Of a DNA stretch of 64,000 nt, positions 14,735 through 59,379 are shown in pieces. The translations under genes and the position numbers were made by a program. How positions within the stretch are numbered: position 1 is the stretch's first letter; each line of letters begins with the position of its first letter. The stretch covers positions 73,658,001 through 73,722,000 of the forward strand of contig NC_086108.1 of assembly GCF_963921235.1 (NCBI RefSeq). The letters are read 5' to 3'. This DNA is from Mobula hypostoma (taxonomy: Eukaryota). The notes under the pieces are model-generated. The model did no database searches, was not told the DNA's origin, and was given only the letters and a program-made list of their open reading frames with translations.

Positions 14735-17700
14735 AGGAGACAGGTAGCTGGGTGACTGTCAGGAGAGGGAAGGGGAATGGAGAGGGAAGGGGAATAGAGA
14801 GAAAGAGCAGAGCACCCCTCCGACCGTTCCCATCAACAATAAGTGTACCATTTTGGATACTGTTGGTGGGGACGACCTACCAGGGACAAGTTGCAGTGGT
14901 TGCGTCTCTGGCACCGAGACTGGACCCTCAGCTCAGAAGGGAAGGAGGGAAAAGAGGAGAGCAGTAATGATAGGGGATTCGATAGTTAGGGGGACAGATA
15001 AGAGGCTCTGTGGAAGAAATCGAGAATCCCGGATGGTCTGTTGCCTCCCTGCTGCCAGGGTCCGCGATATCTCAGATTGAGTTCTCAGTATTCTCAAGAG
15101 GGAGGGTGAGCAGCCAGATGTCATGGTCCATGGAGGGACCAATGACGTGGATAGGAAGGAGGAGGAGGTCCTGCAAAGAGAATTTAGGAAAGTTGGTAAA
15201 AAGTTACAGGACAGGACCTCCAGGGTTGCAATCTCAGGATTGCTACCTGTGCCATGTGCTAGTGAGGCTAGAAATAGGAAGATAATGCAGCTGAGGAGTT
15301 GGTGCAGGAGGGAGGGCTTCATGTTTCTGGACAATTGGGCCTTGTTCCAGGGAAGAGGGGACTTGTTTCGATGGGATGGGTTGCACCTGAACTGGAGGGG
15401 GACTAACATCCTTGCGGGGAGGTTTGCTAGTGCTGCACTGGGGGGCGGGGGGGGTTAAACTAGATTTGTAGGGAGAGGGGAACCAGAGTGTTAGAGCAGA
15501 TAGTGAGGTGGAGGAGGATAAAGGTCATGCGAGAACTGCAAGTATAGTGCATGGAGTAAAGCCAGACCTAACATATAAAGAGGCTTTGAGGAAAGAGAAG
15601 CAGAATAAAGGGTGTAAAGGTAGTAAGGTAGAAAGGCTAAAATGCATGTACTTCAATGCAAGAAGCATCAGGAACAAAGGTGATGAACTGAGAGCTTGGA
15701 TACATACATGGAATTATGACATAGTGGCCATTACAGAGACTTGGCTGGCACCAGGGCAGAAATGGATTCTCAATATTTCTGGATTTCAGTGCTTTAAAAG
15801 GGAGAGAGAGGGGGGACAGGGGAGGAGGGGTGGCATTACTGGTCCGGGATACCATTACAGCAACAGAAAGGGTGGGTAATGGAGCAGGATCCTTTTTTGA
15901 GTCAGTATGGGTAGAAGTCAGGAACAGGAAGGGAGCAGTTACTCTATTGGGGGTATTCTATAGGCCCCCTGGTAGCAGCAGAGATACAGAGGAGCAGATT
16001 GAGAGGCAGATTTTGGAAAGGTGCAAAAATAACAGGGTTGTTATCATGGGTGACTTTAACTTCCCTAATATTGATTGGCACCTGATTAGTTCCAAGGGTT
16101 TAGATGGGGCAGAGTAGGATTCCTGTCACAGTACGTTGACAGGCTAACTAGGGGGAATGCCATACTAGATCTAGTATTAGGTAGCGAACCGGGTCAGGTC
16201 ACAGATCTCTCAGTGGGTGAGCATCTGGGGGACAGTGACCACCGCTCCCTGGCCTTTAACATTATCATGGAAAAGGACAGAATCAGAGAGGACAGGAAAA
16301 TTTTTAATTGGGGAAGGGCAAATTATGAGGCTATAAGGCTAGAACTTGCGGGTGTGAATTGGGATGATGTTTTTGCAGGGAAATATACCATGGACATGTG
16401 GTCGATGTTTAGGGATCTCTTGCAGGATGTTAGGGATATATTTGTCCCAGTGAGGAAGATAAAGAAGGATAGGGTGAAGGAACCATGGGTGACAAGTGAG
16501 GTGGAGAATCTAGTCAGATGGAAGAAGGCAGCATACATGAGGTTTAGGAAGCAAGGATCAGATGAGTCTATTGAGGAATATAGGGTAGCAAGAAAAGAGC
16601 TTAAGAAGGAGCTGAGAAGAGCAAGAAGGGGGCATGAGAAGGCCTTGGTGAGTAGGGTAAAGGAAAACCCCAAGGCATTCTTCAATTATGTGAAGAACAA
16701 AAGGATGACAGGAGTGAAGGTAGGACCGATCAGAGATAAAGGTGGGAAGATGTGCCTGGAGGCTGTGGAAGTGAGTGAGGTCCTCAATGAATACTTCTCT
16801 TTGGTATTCACCAATGAGAGGGAACGATGACGGTGAGGACAATATGAGTGAGGTTGATGTTCTGGAGCATGTTGATATTAAGGGAGAGGAGGTGTTGGAG
16901 CTGTTAAAATACATTAGGACGGATAAGTCCCCAGGGCCTGACGGAATATTCCCCAGGCTGCTCCATTAGGCGAGGTAAGAGATTGCTAAGCCTCTGGCTA
17001 GGATCTTTATGTCCTCATTGTCCACGGGAATAGTACTGGAGAATTGGAGGGAGGGGAATGTTGTCCCCTTGTTCAAAAAAGGTAGTAGGGATAGTCCGGG
17101 TAATTATAGACGAGTGAGCCTTATGTCTATGGTGGGAAAGCTGTTGGAAAAGATTCTTAGAGATAGGATCAATGGGCATTTAGAGAATCATGGTCTGATC
17201 AGGGACAGCCAGCATGGCTTTGTGAAGGGCAGATCATGTCTAAAAAGCCTGATAGAGTTCGTTGAGGAGGTGACCAGGCATATAGATGAGGGTAGTGCAG
17301 TGGATGTGATCTGTATGGATTTTAGTAAGGCATTTGACAAGGTTCCACACGGTAGGCTTATTCAGAAAGTCAGAAGGCATGGGATCTAGGGAAGCTTGAC
17401 CAGGTGGATTCAGAATTGGCTTGCCTGCAGAAAGCAGAGGGTTGTGGCGGAGGGAGTACATTCGGATTGGAGGATTGTGACTAGTGGTGTCCCACAAGGA
17501 TCGGTTCTGGGACCTCTACTTTTCGTGATTTTTATTAACAACCTGGATGTGGGGGTAGAAAGGTAGGTTGGCAAGTTTGCAGATGACACAAAGGTTGGTG
17601 GTGTTGTGGATAGTGTAGAGGATTGTCAAAGATTGCAGAGAGACATTGATAGGATGCAGAAGTGGGCTGAGAAGTGGCAGATGGAGTTCAACCCGGAGAA

Positions 17701-38959: not shown

Positions 38960-40690
38960 AAGACAACAAGATATAGGAGCAGAATTAGGCCATTAGGCCA
39001 ATCGAGTCTGCTCCACCATTTCATTATGGCTAATCCAATTTCCCTCTCAGCCCCAATCTCCTGCTTTCTTCCCTGTATCCCTTCATGCCCTACCCAATCA
39101 AAAATCTATTAACCACTGCCTCAAATATACATAAAGACTTGGCCTCCACAGCTGCTTGTGGCAAAGAATTTCACAGATTCGCTACTCTCTGGCTGAAGGA
39201 ATCCCTCCTTATCTCCATTCTAAAAGGAGACCCCTCTATTCTGAAGCCGTGTCATCAGGTCTTAGACTCTCCCAGCATAGGAAACATCACCTCCACGTCC
39301 AAAGATCTCCCGCCATAGGAAGCATCACCTCCACGTCCACTCTATTGAGGCCTTTCACCATTCGATAGGTTTCAATGAGGTCAACCCCCCATTCTTCCGA
39401 ATTCCAGTGAATACAGCGAGCCATCAAGCGCTCTGCATATGACAAGCCACTCAATCCGGAAGTCATTTTTGCGAACCTCTTTTGAACCCGCTCCGGTTTC
39501 AGCACATTCTTTCTTTCTTTCTTTCTTTTTTTTTTTAATTTTATTTTTATTTGGATAAGAAGGGGCCCAAAACTGCTCTCAAAACTCCAAGTGAGGCCTC
39601 ACCAGTGCATTATAAGATCCCAACAGTATATCCTTGTTTTTATATTCTAGTCCTCTTGAAATGAATGCTAACATTGCATTTGCCTTCCTCACCACAGACT
39701 CAACCTGCAAATTAACCTTCAGGGAATTCTGCACAAGGACTCCCAAGTCCCTTTGCATCTCTGTTTTTTGTATTTTCTCTCCATTCAGAAAACAGTCAAT
39801 CCTTTCATTTCTTCTATCAAAGTGCATGACCATACACTTCCCGACACTGTATTCCATCTGCCATTTCTTTGCCCATTCTCCAAATCTGTCTAAGCCCTTC
39901 TGTAACCTCTCTACTTCTTCAAAACTACCTGTCCCTCCTCCTATCAGGTGTAGCACCTTGTCAAAGGCCTTCTGAAAATCCAAGTACACAACATCAACTA
40001 ACTCTCCTTTGTCTATCCTGCTTGTTACTTCTTCAAAGAATTCCAACAGATTTGTCAGGCAAGATTTTCACTTGAGGAAACCATGCTGACTACGGCCTAT
40101 TTTATCATGTGTCTCCTAGTACCCTGAGACCTCAATCCTTAGCAATCAATTCCAACATCTTCCCACCGACCGAAGTCAGACTAACTAGCTTAGGGTTTCC
40201 TTTCTTCGGCCTCTCTCCCTTCTTGAAGTGACATTTGCAATTTTCCTGGCTTCTGGAACATCTAGTGATTCTTGAAAGATCATTACTAATGCCTCCACGA
40301 TCTATTCAGCCACCTCTTTCAGAACTCTGGGGTGTACACCAACTGTTCCAAGTGACTTATCTACCTTTAGACCTTCCAGTTACCCAAGAACCTTCTCTCT
40401 AGTTATGGTAATTTCATACACTTCATGCTCCCTGACACTTGGAACTTCCACCATACTGCTAATGCCTCCACAGTGAAGACTGATTGATGTAAAATACTTA
40501 TTCAGTTTATCCGCTATTTTGTTGTCCCCCATTACTACTTCTCCAGCATCATCTTCTAGTAATCCAATATTTACTCTCGCCTCTCTTTCACACTTTACGT
40601 ATCTGGGAAAAAACTTTTGGTATCCTCTTTAAAGTTACTGGCTAGCTTACTTTCATATTCTATCTTTACCTTCTTAATGACCTTTTAGTT
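38960..40690 (-). mobile_element. CR1 ORF2 fragment with deletions
   Basis: VDVVYLDFQKAFDKV, LVRPHLE, CR1 3' UTR. Confidence 0.88.
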
Positions 40691-42536: not shown

Positions 42537-44985
42537 ACAATAGTGACAATAGACAATAGGTACAGGAGTAGGACATTTGGCCCTTCGAGCCAGCACCACC
42601 ATTCACTGTGATCATGGCTGATCATCCACAATCATTACCCCATTCCTGCCTTCTCCCCATATCTCTTGACTCCATTATCATTAAGAGCTCTATCTAACTC
42701 TTTCTTGAAAGCATCCAGAGAATTGGCCTCCACTGCCTTCTGAGGCAGAGCATTCCACAGATCCACAACTCTCTGGGTGAAAAAGTTTTCCTCAACTCCA
42801 TTCTAAATGGCCTACCCCTTATTCTCAAATTGTGGCCTCTGGTTCTGGACTCCACTGACATCGGGAACATGTTTCCTGCCTCTAGTGTGTCCAATCCCTT
42901 AATAATCCTATATGTTTCAATCAGATTCCTTCTCATTCTTCTAAATTCCAGTGTATACAAGCTCAGTCGCTCCAATCTTTCAACATATGACAGTCCCACC
43001 ATCCCGGGAATTAACCCCGTGAACCTCCGCTGCACTTCCTCAATAGCAAGAATGTCCTTCCTCAAATTTGGAGACCAAAACTGTACACAATACTCCAGGT
43101 GTGGTCTCACCAGGGCCCTGTACAACTGCAGAAGGATCTCTTGCTCCTATACTCAACTCTCCTTGTTATGAAGGCCAGCATGCCATTAGCTTTCTTCAGT
43201 GCCTGCTGTACCTGCATGCTTACTTTCAGTGACTGATGAACAAGGACACCAAGATCATGTTGTACTTCCCCTTTTCCTAACTTGACACCATTCAAATAGT
43301 AATCTGCCTTCCTGTTCTTGCCACCAAAGTGGATAACCTCACATTTATCCACATTAAACTGCATCTGCCCACTCACCCAACCTGTCCAAGTCATCCTGCA
43401 TTATCTCAACATCCTCCGCACATTTCACACTGCCACCCAGCTTTGTGTCATCTGCAAATTTGCTAATGTTACTTTTAATCCCTTCATCTAAATCATTAAT
43501 ATACATTGTAAATAGCTGCGGTCCCAGCATCGAGCCTTGCAGTACCCCACTGATCACCTCCTGCCATTCCGAAAGGGACCCGTTAATCGTTAGTCTTTGT
43601 TTCCTGTCTGCCAACCAATTTTCTATCCATGTCAGTACCCTACCCCCCCAATACCATGTGTGCTCTAATTTTGCCCACTAATCTCCTATGTGGGACCTTA
43701 TCAAAGGCTTTCTGAAAGTCCAGGTACACTACATCCACTGGCTCTCCCTTGTCCATTTTCATAGTTAGATCCTCAAAAAATTCCAGAAGATTAGTCTAGC
43801 ATGATTTCCCCTTCGTAAATCCATGCTGACTCGGACCGATCCTGTTACTGCTATCCAAATGTGCCGCTATTTCATCCTTTATAATTGACTCCAGCATCTT
43901 CCCCACCACTGATGTCAGGCTAACTGCTCTATAATTCCCTGCTTTCTCTCTCCCTCCTTTCTTAAAAAGTGAGATAACATTAGCTACCCTCCAGTCCTCA
44001 GGAACTGATCCTGAATCTATAGAACATTGGAAAATAATTACCAATGCGTCCATGATTTCTAGAGCGACCTCCTTAAGTGCCCTGGGATGCAGACCATCAG
44101 GCCCTGGGGATTTATCAGCCTTCGGTCCCATCAGTCTATCCAACACCATTTTCTGCCTAATGTGAATCTCCTTCAGTTTCTCCATTACCCTAGGTCCTCC
44201 GGCTACTATTACATCTGGGAGATTGTTTGTATCTTCCCCAGTGAAGACAGATCCAAAGTACCTGTTCAACTCGTCTGCCATTTCCTTGTTCCCCATAATA
44301 AATTCACCCATTTCTGTCTTCAAGGGCCCAACTTTGGTCTTAACTAATTTTTTCCTCTTCACATACCTAAAGAAGCTTTTACTATCCTCCTTTATATTCT
44401 TGGCTAGCTTGCCTTCGTATCTCATCTTTTTGCCCCGTATTGCCTTTTTAGTTATCCTCTGTTGCTCTTTAAAAGTTTCCCAATCCTCTGGCTTCCTGCT
44501 CATCTTTGCTATGTTATACTTCTTCTCTTTTATATTTATACTATCCTTGACTTCCCTTGTCAGCCACGGTCGCCCCTTACTCCCCTTAGAATCTTTCTTC
44601 CTCTTTGGAATGCACTGATCCTCCACCCAGAAATTCCCAGAAATACCTGCCATTGTTGTTCCACTGTCATCCCTGCTAGGATATCTTTCCAGTCAACTTT
44701 GGCCAGCTCCTCCCTCATGGCTCCATAGTCTCCTTTGTTCAACTGCAATATTGACACTTCGATTTTCCCTTCTCCCTCTCAAATTGTAGTTTAAAACTTA
44801 ATCATATTATAGTCACTACCTCCTAATGGCTCCTTTACCTCGAGTTCCCTTATCAAATCCGGTTCATTACACAACACTAAATCCAGAATTGCCTTCTCCC
44901 TGGTAGGTTCCAGTACAAGCTGCTCTAAGAATCCATCTCGGAGGCAGTCCACAAACTCCCTTTCTTGGGGTCCAGTACCAACCTT
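42537..44985 (-). mobile_element. 5'-truncated CR1 (most of ORF2)
   Basis: 285-aa ORF with KSPGPDGLHP and QHGFTKGKSC; SKFADDTKLGG; (acaatag) tail. Confidence 0.93.
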
Positions 44986-55941: not shown

Positions 55942-57464
55942 TATTTCTGGATATGCAGTGTAAACAAAATGGCACATTGCACTGACTCCACATTGCTAGA
56001 ATAAAATCATTCTAAGTATAGCAGCACTAGAACGGTTAAAGCTTTGTGTGTGTAACCTCACTTTACAACTTCCTGACTCATGACTTGTACTATTATTCAG
56101 CAAGATGTGATGCAGTATGTCATAGTTCATAATTTCCTTACCTTGCTATATTGGAGAGTGCAGAGTGCAACCTGGTCTGAATAAATCTCTGGAGAAAGGA
56201 CTTAACTTTCAACACTTGTTTACATTTTCTCATGGAAATTAGCTTCATTTACATTCCTTTAATTCACAAAAGGTCTTCATTAAGCACTTCGTAGAACGTT
56301 AAGATGAAAGGAGAGTTATTGGTGCCAACATTGTCACTTTTTTTTTTGAAGTTAACAAGGAGCTTGCTGCATATTTTGTCTTTATTTTTGATGGAACACT
56401 TAACACTATGAATAGTCAAAACCCTCTTTGCCATGAGGAGGTAATAATCTGTTCCTTAAACCAACAACCTTTCTATCATTACCGGGATCAACAATTCTCA
56501 AATTCCTGCCTGAGTTTGTAATAATGCAGCTGAAACTAGCTGCTCAAAGTGCAAAGTAAATTTATTATCAAAATGCTTAAATGTCACCATATACTATGTT
56601 GAGATTCATTTTCCTACGGACATTTATAGTACAAAAAATACAATAGAATCAATTAAAACGACACACAAAAACTGACAACAACCAATATGTAAAATACATT
56701 GTTGCATGATATTTCATCATAGTTTTTTATCTCTACTCTCCTTTTCCAACCAAAAATACAAGGCACAGTAAAATACTTAATGAGAAGTAAATTCTGTAAA
56801 ACATACCAGTTTGAATGGAATTGATAACATGCATGTTATATGTATTGTGTGCTGGATTTAAAAAGTATTATTTTGATAAACCACACCAATACATACAGAG
56901 TATTCAGTACCAATCAGTGTGCTGTTTCTCCAAGGGGATACAGTAGTACTTCCAAGGAAAATAATTAGCAAATGTTTTCAGTAAAACAACATATTTCTAA
57001 AACTAAAACTTTAAAAATCACTTTCTCACAATTAAGTAACAAAGTTTTTTAGACTCCTCTCAGTGTTCTTCAACCAGATACGAAAAGAATTGCCTGCCAT
57101 TACGTCTTGTGGTTATTGTTAAAACAGAAAAGGCAGAATGCCATGCTGTAACTCAATCAATATATAGTCTTACATCGGAAAAATAAATTACAATCAGTGT
57201 TATTTTTCAACAAACCACGAAAGATCAGCCAATTTATTATCATTTATTTCCTGTTCTCCTGAAATTCTAGTTTTTCCAGACAATGGACAAACTGAGAAAA
57301 CCAATGGTAGCTGGATATCACTGACAGAAAGCTGTACTTCCAAACAAGTGCTTCAGGGCAGTACAGTGTTAATTGTTAAAATTTATTATTAAAGTTGTAT
57401 ATGTGCCGTATATAACCTTGAAATTCATTTTCTTGCAGACATTTACACAGCAATAAAGAAATAC

Positions 57465-57935
57465 TGGGTTCTGGTACTAAATGGTTGCCGGCCGCTCGAG
57501 GTTAGTCTGGTGAGGAGGGTGTGAGGACACCCAGCAGGACTGAAAAAACAAGACCTGACGAAGGGTGGATGAGCTCCTTGTGAGCCAACAGCGATCTTCC
57601 GTGGAAGAGATTAAAGCCTCACCTCGAATCTACGAATCGTATGCTATGCACCTAGTTAGAAGCGACATGATGAACTTGGGCGCTGCACCGTGTGCCTGGA
57701 CCTGCCCAAGGCCTCCGCCTAAGGAAGGGCTGAGCTTGAAGAAACGGCTGTGGCTGGAGGCCAACACGGCCTCGGGCTCGAGTTCGGCAGGGGTGGCGGC
57801 GGCAGGTGGTGCCAAGGCGGCCAGCGAGAACAAACTGGAGGAGAGGCTGTACTCAGTGCTGTCGCAAGATCGAAGAAGATGGAGGTGCATAGCCGCCAAC
57901 CCCAGATTCGGGATAGCACCCACTGACTGACTGAC
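57465..57935 (+). mobile_element. RTE-derived short non-autonomous retroelement carrying a captured gene fragment
   Basis: 10-bp TSD AAAGAAATAC at 57455-57464 and 57936-57945; (ACTG)3 tail; RTE C-terminal-like VRSDMMNLG...QDRRRWR split by the insert. Confidence 0.75.
57682..57862 (+). pseudogene. ZFTRAF1: circularly permuted 181-bp fragment of ZFTRAF1 (CYHR1) coding sequence
   Basis: 57721-57862 reads ...KKRL...[12 protein letters not shown] and 57684-57716 reads [11 protein letters not shown]. Joining 57862 to 57682 restores [22 protein letters not shown], which I recognise as CYHR1/ZFTRAF1. Confidence 0.85.
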
Positions 57936-58003
57936 AAAGAAATACAGTAGAATTTATCAATAACTATACATCAGAAATACCGACAAACAACCAATGCAAA
58001 CTG

Positions 58004-58685: not shown

Positions 58686-58914
58686 ACACGAGGAATTCTG
58701 CAGATGCTGGAAATTCAAGCCACATACATCAAAGTTGCTGGTGAACGCAGCAGGTCAGGCAGCATCTCTAGGAAGAGGTACAGTCGACGTTTCAGGCCAG
58801 GACCCTTCGTCAGGTTAGTCCTGACGAAGGGTCCCAGCCTGAAATGTCGACTGTACCTCTTCCTAGAGATGCTGCCTGACCTGCTACGTTCACCAGTAAC
58901 TTTGATGTGTGTTG
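58686..58914. mobile_element. fold-back PLE terminus with a hammerhead core on both strands
   Basis: 93-bp arms 58722-58814 and 58820-58912, loop TTAGT; 15-bp direct repeat CTGGAAGCAGTGCAG at 58671-58685 and 58915-58929. Confidence 0.9.
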
Positions 58915-59379
58915 CTGGAAGCAGTGCAGGATGACAGCAACAATATGGATGAGATGCTAAAAGAAATTATCATTAGTTTTTTCAAAAAAAAAGCTTTAGC
59001 AAAATTTCTAAACCTGGCACCTTGCTCCTTTATCTTTTCTGTGGCTTCTTACACAATCACAACTCGAAAAGTGTGCTGAGACTCTATCAATAATTGGGCC
59101 AATCTCTCTCCTCATGTCCTATGCCTTCTTAATCATCCACCCAATTCATCACACTGCCTTCAGGAACCTGTGTAGCACACACATCAAAGTTTTCTGTTTC
59201 TGTGTACTTGTGCATTTCTAGCCTGTTTATCCTCTGTAAATTACCTTACATTTCAACGCATTAAATTTATTTGGCAGAAATTCACCCCAATTCATTGATA
59301 TTTTCCTGCAGCTTATACTTTTCTTCCTCATTCTCTACTACTGCAAATCTCAATTCAAGTTCTTCATCAATATCTTCAT

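Follow-up and report, generated by a model that had tools for sequence, protein, structure and literature searches.

A circularly permuted ZFTRAF1 exon fragment within a dispersed LINE-derived element of Mobula hypostoma

The window, the whole stretch of 64,000 nucleotides from Mobula hypostoma (contig NC_086108.1) that we analyzed, contains at positions 57465-57935 a copy of a composite element flanked by a 10-bp target site duplication. At full length (~575 bp), the element consists of the 5' part of a putatively RTE-type LINE, two pieces of the host gene ZFTRAF1/CYHR1 in the order B and A, and the terminal ~70 nt of that LINE at its 3' end, such that ~2.9 kb of the LINE ORF interior is replaced by a 178-nt permuted filler. 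The head corresponds to the LINE 5' UTR and first ORF codons and has ~100-, 7-, and 10-nt deletions in comparison with the LINE; over ~200 nt it differs from the autonomous LINE by three substitutions and small indels. In the window copy most of the 5' hairpin is lost, and in-frame ATGs of the head are found at 57646 and 57667. The features are as follows:

57455..57464, + strand: 5' target site duplication, 10 bp, identical to 57936-57945
57465..57501, + strand: remnant of the element's 5' end, including ~18 nt at the start of the fold-back arm (57482-57499), from direct reading and comparison with full-length copies; the remainder of the ~120-nt hairpin is deleted
57502..57681, + strand: head, LINE 5' UTR and first ORF codons with the 7-nt and 10-nt deletions, from alignment to autonomous copies
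57682..57721, + strand: segment B, 40 nt from exon 1 of ZFTRAF1, 39/40 identical to the parent exon (L016)
57722..57862, + strand: segment A, the 138 nt that precede B in the parent, starting EEGPSSKKRPRLE, plus a private 3-nt insertion
57863..57935, + strand: last ~70 nt of the LINE with the C-terminal QDRRRW codons, stop codon, and GACT-repeat tail, from the match to the LINE 3' end
57667..57930, + strand: chimeric mini-ORF of 87 codons, opening at the LINE ATG and closed by the LINE stop
57936..57945, + strand: 3' target site duplication

A pattern search for the unpermuted A|B join, allowing at most one mismatch, found a single site in the 3.48 Gb genome, and a control pattern gave 0 matches. 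This site (L016) corresponds to the first exon of a ZFTRAF1 gene with four exons on G000:C5. When translated, the exon matches ZFTRAF1/CYHR1, most closely that of rays and skates (76–86% to five cartilaginous fishes), and three further ZFTRAF1 exons lie 91–158 kb downstream on the same contig. Altogether, the four coding-exon matches of the parent gene extend across 158 kb (G000:C5:227933278-228091328), the first intron being ~91 kb. Sequencing runs from two coded organisms, consisting of assembled contigs, contain most of the sequence words of the parent exon. Exon 1 is a coding exon and ends in CAG|gt after ...KASVYQ. Both the gene identity and the exon end at VYQ had been given correctly in the initial annotation, which had described the block as an exactly circularly permuted, 181-bp coding fragment inside a retroelement. 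We searched for possible donors among ZFTRAF1 retrocopies and paralogues but found only the one four-exon gene; the other 98 of the 102 scored matches span the A region alone. No tandem duplication, which the initial annotation had named as grounds for rejecting its claim, and no LINE remnant was found in 45 kb of the parent locus.

In the parent the order is A (138 nt) followed by B (40 nt), and in the window B precedes A. The two intervals abut exactly, occupying positions 1376-1513 and 1514-1553 of the reverse-complemented L016, with no base gained or lost. The circular permutation of ZFTRAF1 exon 1 is thus confirmed, and with it the predicted swapped-order match to one contiguous exon interval, the circle-like topology, and the placement within a retroelement, with LINE-derived sequence on both sides of the filler. 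The family majority is identical to the parent at 136 of the 138 positions of A and at 175 of 178 over the whole filler, the remaining three positions differing. The captured length is 178 nt rather than 181: the higher figure counts the 3-nt insertion within A, which among 16 aligned copies is found in the window copy only. The novel B|A join, earlier placed near 57717-57721, is at 57721|57722. The filler is in sense orientation to the LINE, lies wholly within exon 1, and has 71% GC and 20 CpGs, and its segment B ends 4 nt short of the splice donor of exon 1. A junction inherited from a parent once 6 nt shorter upstream of A is excluded by the presence of (E/Q)LEEG in all five cartilaginous-fish orthologues aligned.

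As all 16 aligned copies carry the permuted filler, the fragment is not unique to the window locus. Of 1,335 candidates, 40 were scored and 39 of these were other copies with 91–93% identity. The B|A junction pattern had 430 exact matches across many contigs and the control pattern none, and the 8-nt spacer was identical in all of the 100 junction matches listed. To correct for copies that lack the exact pattern, we used copies chosen independently of it, 17 of 27 of which match (5 of 12 in a stricter subset), and estimated a family size of ~680–1,030 copies. Together with the mutations private to each copy and the 175/178 identity to the parent, the 430 junction matches against 0 for the control refute an assembly artefact or chance resemblance, explanations to which we give virtually no credence.

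We aligned 55 rows from 53 loci, having dropped four loci that repeated a place already held. The aligned rows show variable 5' truncation and the GACT-repeat tail, and a flanking direct repeat of at least 9 nt is present in 20 of them. Mean divergence is 6.0% (3.2% at non-CpG sites) and the relationships are near star-like, with independent point mutations in each copy and nearly all variable columns being CpG sites. At one non-CpG site the LINE state is retained in 12 of 52 copies with the junction unchanged, a hint of an older sublineage. A 6-nt tandem duplication immediately precedes the B|A join in L110 and in L111, which are on different contigs, and at L009 two element copies (568-996 and 1411-1830) are placed head to head ~400 bp apart.

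These data show that a nearly single master lineage spread to ~700–1,000 sites by target-primed reverse transcription via the 3' tail of the partner LINE. The element has a LINE-derived 5' part, a 3' end identical to the LINE including the microsatellite tail, and no endonuclease or reverse transcriptase of its own, and it is multicopy with target site duplications and 5' truncation. The window locus is therefore a retrotransposed copy of a nonautonomous bipartite LINE derivative and not the integration site of a circle. The capture happened once, in the master element, and the reintegration of a small circle at the window locus, proposed in the initial annotation, is replaced by retrotransposition with a 10-bp target site duplication. 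A search of a full-length copy against Rfam found no family at cut-off, and a Pfam search of the window fragment gave 0 families. We rejected a SINE with a small-RNA head (tRNA, 7SL, or 5S), as the head is fully explained by the LINE 5' UTR and its fold-back.

No protein-level selection was seen on the mini-ORF, synonymous changes numbering 314 in comparison with 322 ± 13 expected, and the frame is shifted in 17 of 53 copies. With substitutions appearing neutral and a third of the copies frameshifted, a function of the copies is not indicated. Stop gains in the mini-ORF numbered 12, against 24 in a class-preserving shuffle (P = 0.007; 55 rows, with copies partly picked by exact patterns).

The partner LINE was characterized from both of its ends. 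A tail pattern leaving out the last base of the filler had 110 matches, of which we examined 20: 18 were LINE 3' ends with this tail and 2 were copies of the element. Over 62 nt of the 3' end, the majority sequence of the family equals that of the LINE. The start of the LINE ORF is present at 35 loci, and one near-full-length but broken copy (L038) has endonuclease (Pfam E 6e-11) and reverse transcriptase (E 2e-15) domains within one broken ORF. By its single ORF, C-terminal AQDRxxWR, and repeat tail, the LINE is putatively RTE-type; an Atlas neighbor carries the name "Craniofacial development protein 2". Divergence of the head is 4.4% in the LINE (22 copies) and 3.8% in the element (47 copies), so that both spread at about the same time. 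In 8 of the 24 head-bearing LINE loci (L114, L117, L119, L120, L123, L130, L134, and L136), the 5' part has the opposite orientation to the 3' part, a pattern like that of twin priming. At one of these (L119:1383-1582), the head is broken within 3 nt of the head|B breakpoint of the element; the site may be one favored for breakage or priming, or the proximity may be due to chance.

Other repeats are present in the window. Positions 58714-58920 contain a ~207-bp self-complementary repeat, 89.9% identical to its own reverse complement and related to a repeat family abundant elsewhere. Open frames at 43796-44692 (−), 39579-40067 (−), and 16090-16830 (+) resemble fragments of other LINEs, presumably CR1-like; the first has a weak match to RVT_1 below the cut-off and the last has none.

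Full-length copies of the element start with an inverted duplicate of segments of the LINE 5' UTR, giving a fold-back with a ~41-bp stem. An example is L002:1255-1400 (z = −4.9); the window copy retains a remnant of the fold-back at 57482-57499. Within the stem, 11 of the 18 positions where the LINE majority has A read G, as opposed to 0 of 56 elsewhere in the head (P = 8e-9, Fisher's test). The A>G changes are found on both arms; the stem segments have five other substitutions, and a further AAA run at the stem edge reads GGG. Arm 1 keeps TTTT opposite the GGGG of arm 2, indicating that the changes postdate the duplication and arose independently on each arm. In the family, the G states are close to fixation. 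Such A>G changes result when double-stranded RNA is A-to-I edited and then reverse transcribed. The ADAR-like signature argues strongly that the 5' fold-back of the master was A-to-I edited as RNA and reverse transcribed, and that the edits were then fixed in the family.

The joins of the filler provide the closest record of the capture itself. The LINE and the parent share no bases at head|B or at A|tail, both of which are blunt joins. The B|A join as found has a repeat of 0 nt and needs one T>C change, and the microhomology that the initial annotation had anticipated at the fragment ends is thus missing. The AG that opens A could equally be the last two bases of the exon after a 2-nt loss. 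Read this way, the captured molecule would be a 180-nt circle bounded by a cryptic AG and the donor, with an AGG repeat of 3 nt; a 3-nt repeat with a shift of 0–4 nt allowed occurs in 31% of random pairs, and the putative cryptic acceptor is weak, with 9/19 pyrimidines and a rank of 9th to 11th among 36 AGs. The 2 nt are restored in none of the copies found: a search for spacers above 8 nt had two matches, both of them 6-nt tandem duplications. Similarly, no empty head–tail precursor was found in the genome with exact patterns, which can miss diverged copies, and no filler-bearing copy lacks the 10-nt head deletion, the single match being a LINE copy. The 10-nt and 2-nt losses sum to 12 nt and, if both are undone, all four parts are in their native frame, an observation made post hoc.

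On balance, the filler was probably captured at the RNA stage. Our weighing of the mechanisms is a judgement and not a computation. The sense polarity, the wholly exonic origin, the nearness to the splice donor, the blunt joins, and the replacement of the LINE ORF favor capture from RNA, and the exact abutment of A and B implies either that a circle was opened at one point or that a molecule was cut once and neither piece was lost. The reverse transcriptase of the LINE would have begun at the tail of the LINE, switched without homology to ZFTRAF1 exon-1 RNA (or followed RNAs ligated beforehand), copied it, and then jumped to the LINE 5' part. As template, the enzyme could have used a small circle, making exactly one turn, or a molecule with a single cut whose two pieces were copied in swapped order; either would explain why B starts where A ends. 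The master would additionally have gained the 5' fold-back of LINE UTR sequence. Of the RNA routes, the likelier is a nonspliceosomal circle or a cut 5'-exon RNA, which among all the mechanisms weighed comes fairly close to an even chance. According to the parts of the literature that we draw on, non-LTR reverse transcriptases jump between templates in vivo or copy preligated RNAs (PMC3414825; PMC8857657), and for the R2 SIDEs DNA recombination is deemed likelier than template jumping (PMC3414825). An RNA-stage history of the family is supported by the fixed A>G changes of the stem and by the frequent rearrangement of the LINE (8/24 inverted). On the other side, no intermediate has survived, and the 178-nt size and the CpG-island origin would also fit a microDNA.

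A back-spliced template would be a special case of capture from RNA: a 180-nt, 60-codon circRNA joining the exon-1 donor to the cryptic AG within the same first exon, with 2 nt lost later. The LINE reverse transcriptase would then have copied the circRNA for exactly one turn, leaving the LINE N-terminus, B, A, and the LINE C-terminus originally in their native frames, and the resulting master would have been A-to-I hyperedited in its 5' fold-back and amplified about a thousandfold. The initial annotation had argued against back-splicing as the junction falls short of the exon end, and asked whether the fragment ends are splice sites. The argument is not decisive, as the join is 4 nt before the donor and the AG may be the last two bases of the exon; B does end close to the donor, though not at the donor itself. 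Closeness to the donor and the native frames after restoring 12 nt support back-splicing, whereas the lack of any copy with the 2 nt, the poor pyrimidine tract, and the frequency of such repeats by chance speak against it, and we regard it as unlikely.

An origin from DNA, as a microDNA-type eccDNA, had been suggested by the initial annotation. A circle of ~178–180 bp from the CpG island of exon 1 would have been opened once and end-joined into a broken LINE missing ~2.9 kb, which then became the master. The exact abutment is expected from a circle opened once, the size is inside the 100–400-bp microDNA range and the exon of origin has 71% GC and lies in a CpG island, in line with a review of microDNA (PMC9527254), and the 3-nt AGG repeat would be present if the circle was 180 bp. 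The terminal repeat is 0 nt at the junction as found, however, and a lossless opening and two blunt joins are required. A DNA circle also leaves to chance the sense polarity (1 in 2), the wholly coding-exon origin, and the end 4 nt from the donor, a position that by our estimate a random end within an island of ~700 bp would take in ~1% of cases. The size and origin noted earlier thus stand, but the sense polarity, the exonic origin, and the ORF replacement point more to an RNA stage; a microDNA is possible though rather less than likely.

Neither a circle nor a single cut would be needed if the filler arose by two independent template switches during DNA repair or from a tandem duplication of exon 1 that was later lost, the abutment being coincidental. 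The LINE family does rearrange often and, for LTR elements, chimeras with multiple switches are reported (PMC5131818, as far as drawn on here). By our inference, however, the exact abutment would be a ~1-in-100 coincidence under independent switches, and a lost duplication is opposed by its absence from 45 kb of the parent locus and by the single native A|B join genome-wide. We consider such origins very improbable. Insertion of the LINE into exon 1 and twin priming were rejected as causes by reasoning, as a wrong order of parts or an inversion would be expected.

With the parent gene, the partner LINE, and hundreds of daughters in one genome, every junction is readable to the base, and the family is a natural record of a LINE derivative acquiring host sequence. 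The exact permutation and blunt joins bear on the question of whether small RNA or DNA circles get written into vertebrate germlines, and the fixed A>G pattern suggests that RNA editing became heritable sequence. If the back-splice origin were true, a single element would hold a germline record of first-exon back-splicing, of a LINE reverse transcriptase copying a circle for one turn, and of ADAR edits passed on by inheritance. In practical terms, the presence of ~1,000 decoys of ZFTRAF1 exon 1 will mislead gene annotation as well as the calling of circRNA and eccDNA in this genome. Our searches of the open-access literature turned up neither this family nor any report of a permuted exon within a bipartite LINE or of a fold-back with fixed A>G edits.

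The closest known systems each share a part of this architecture; the comparisons are with those aspects that the cited sources were drawn on for. The bipartite nonautonomous LINEs of the RTE, Ingi, Vingi, and R2 groups (RTESINE1/2, WALLSI3, MAR4_MD, RIME, and NARTc; Kojima 2018, PMC5786205) similarly consist of a 5' part and the extreme 3' end joined by an internal deletion, have a microsatellite tail, are mobilized in trans, and outnumber their partner, but here the interior is replaced by a permuted host coding fragment and an A>G-edited fold-back is present. In R2 SIDEs (PMC3414825), LINE ends surround a foreign middle of similar size (in R2Dwi_SIDE, a 197-bp center of unknown origin), and template jumping and recombination are the two origins proposed; here the source and permutation of the filler are identified and the ~1,000 copies are dispersed, whereas R2 SIDEs are targeted to rDNA. 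The circRNA-derived pseudogenes, notably the 33 copies of circRFWD2 with flanking LTR sequence (Dong 2016, PMC4897178), are alike in their noncolinear gene sequence, lack of poly(A), location inside retroelement sequence, and many copies. CircRFWD2 joins annotated exon ends (exon 6 to exon 2), while our join is within a single first exon in a non-LTR carrier, with B ending 4 nt short of the donor instead of the junction lying exactly at a donor and an acceptor. In chimeras of LTR-mediated retroposition (Tan 2016, PMC5131818), a piece of host mRNA likewise replaces the internal ORF and the chimera retrotransposes again; those are flanked by LTRs and show microsimilarity at 25 of 29 junctions, in contrast to the LINE flanks, zero microhomology, and permuted piece found here. 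Finally, translocation through microDNA or circular intermediates (PMC9527254) resembles our case in the size, the exon and CpG-island origin, and the permuted order on reinsertion, but differs from it in that the element has no terminal microhomology, has LINE breakpoints 2.9 kb apart, and was amplified by retrotransposition.
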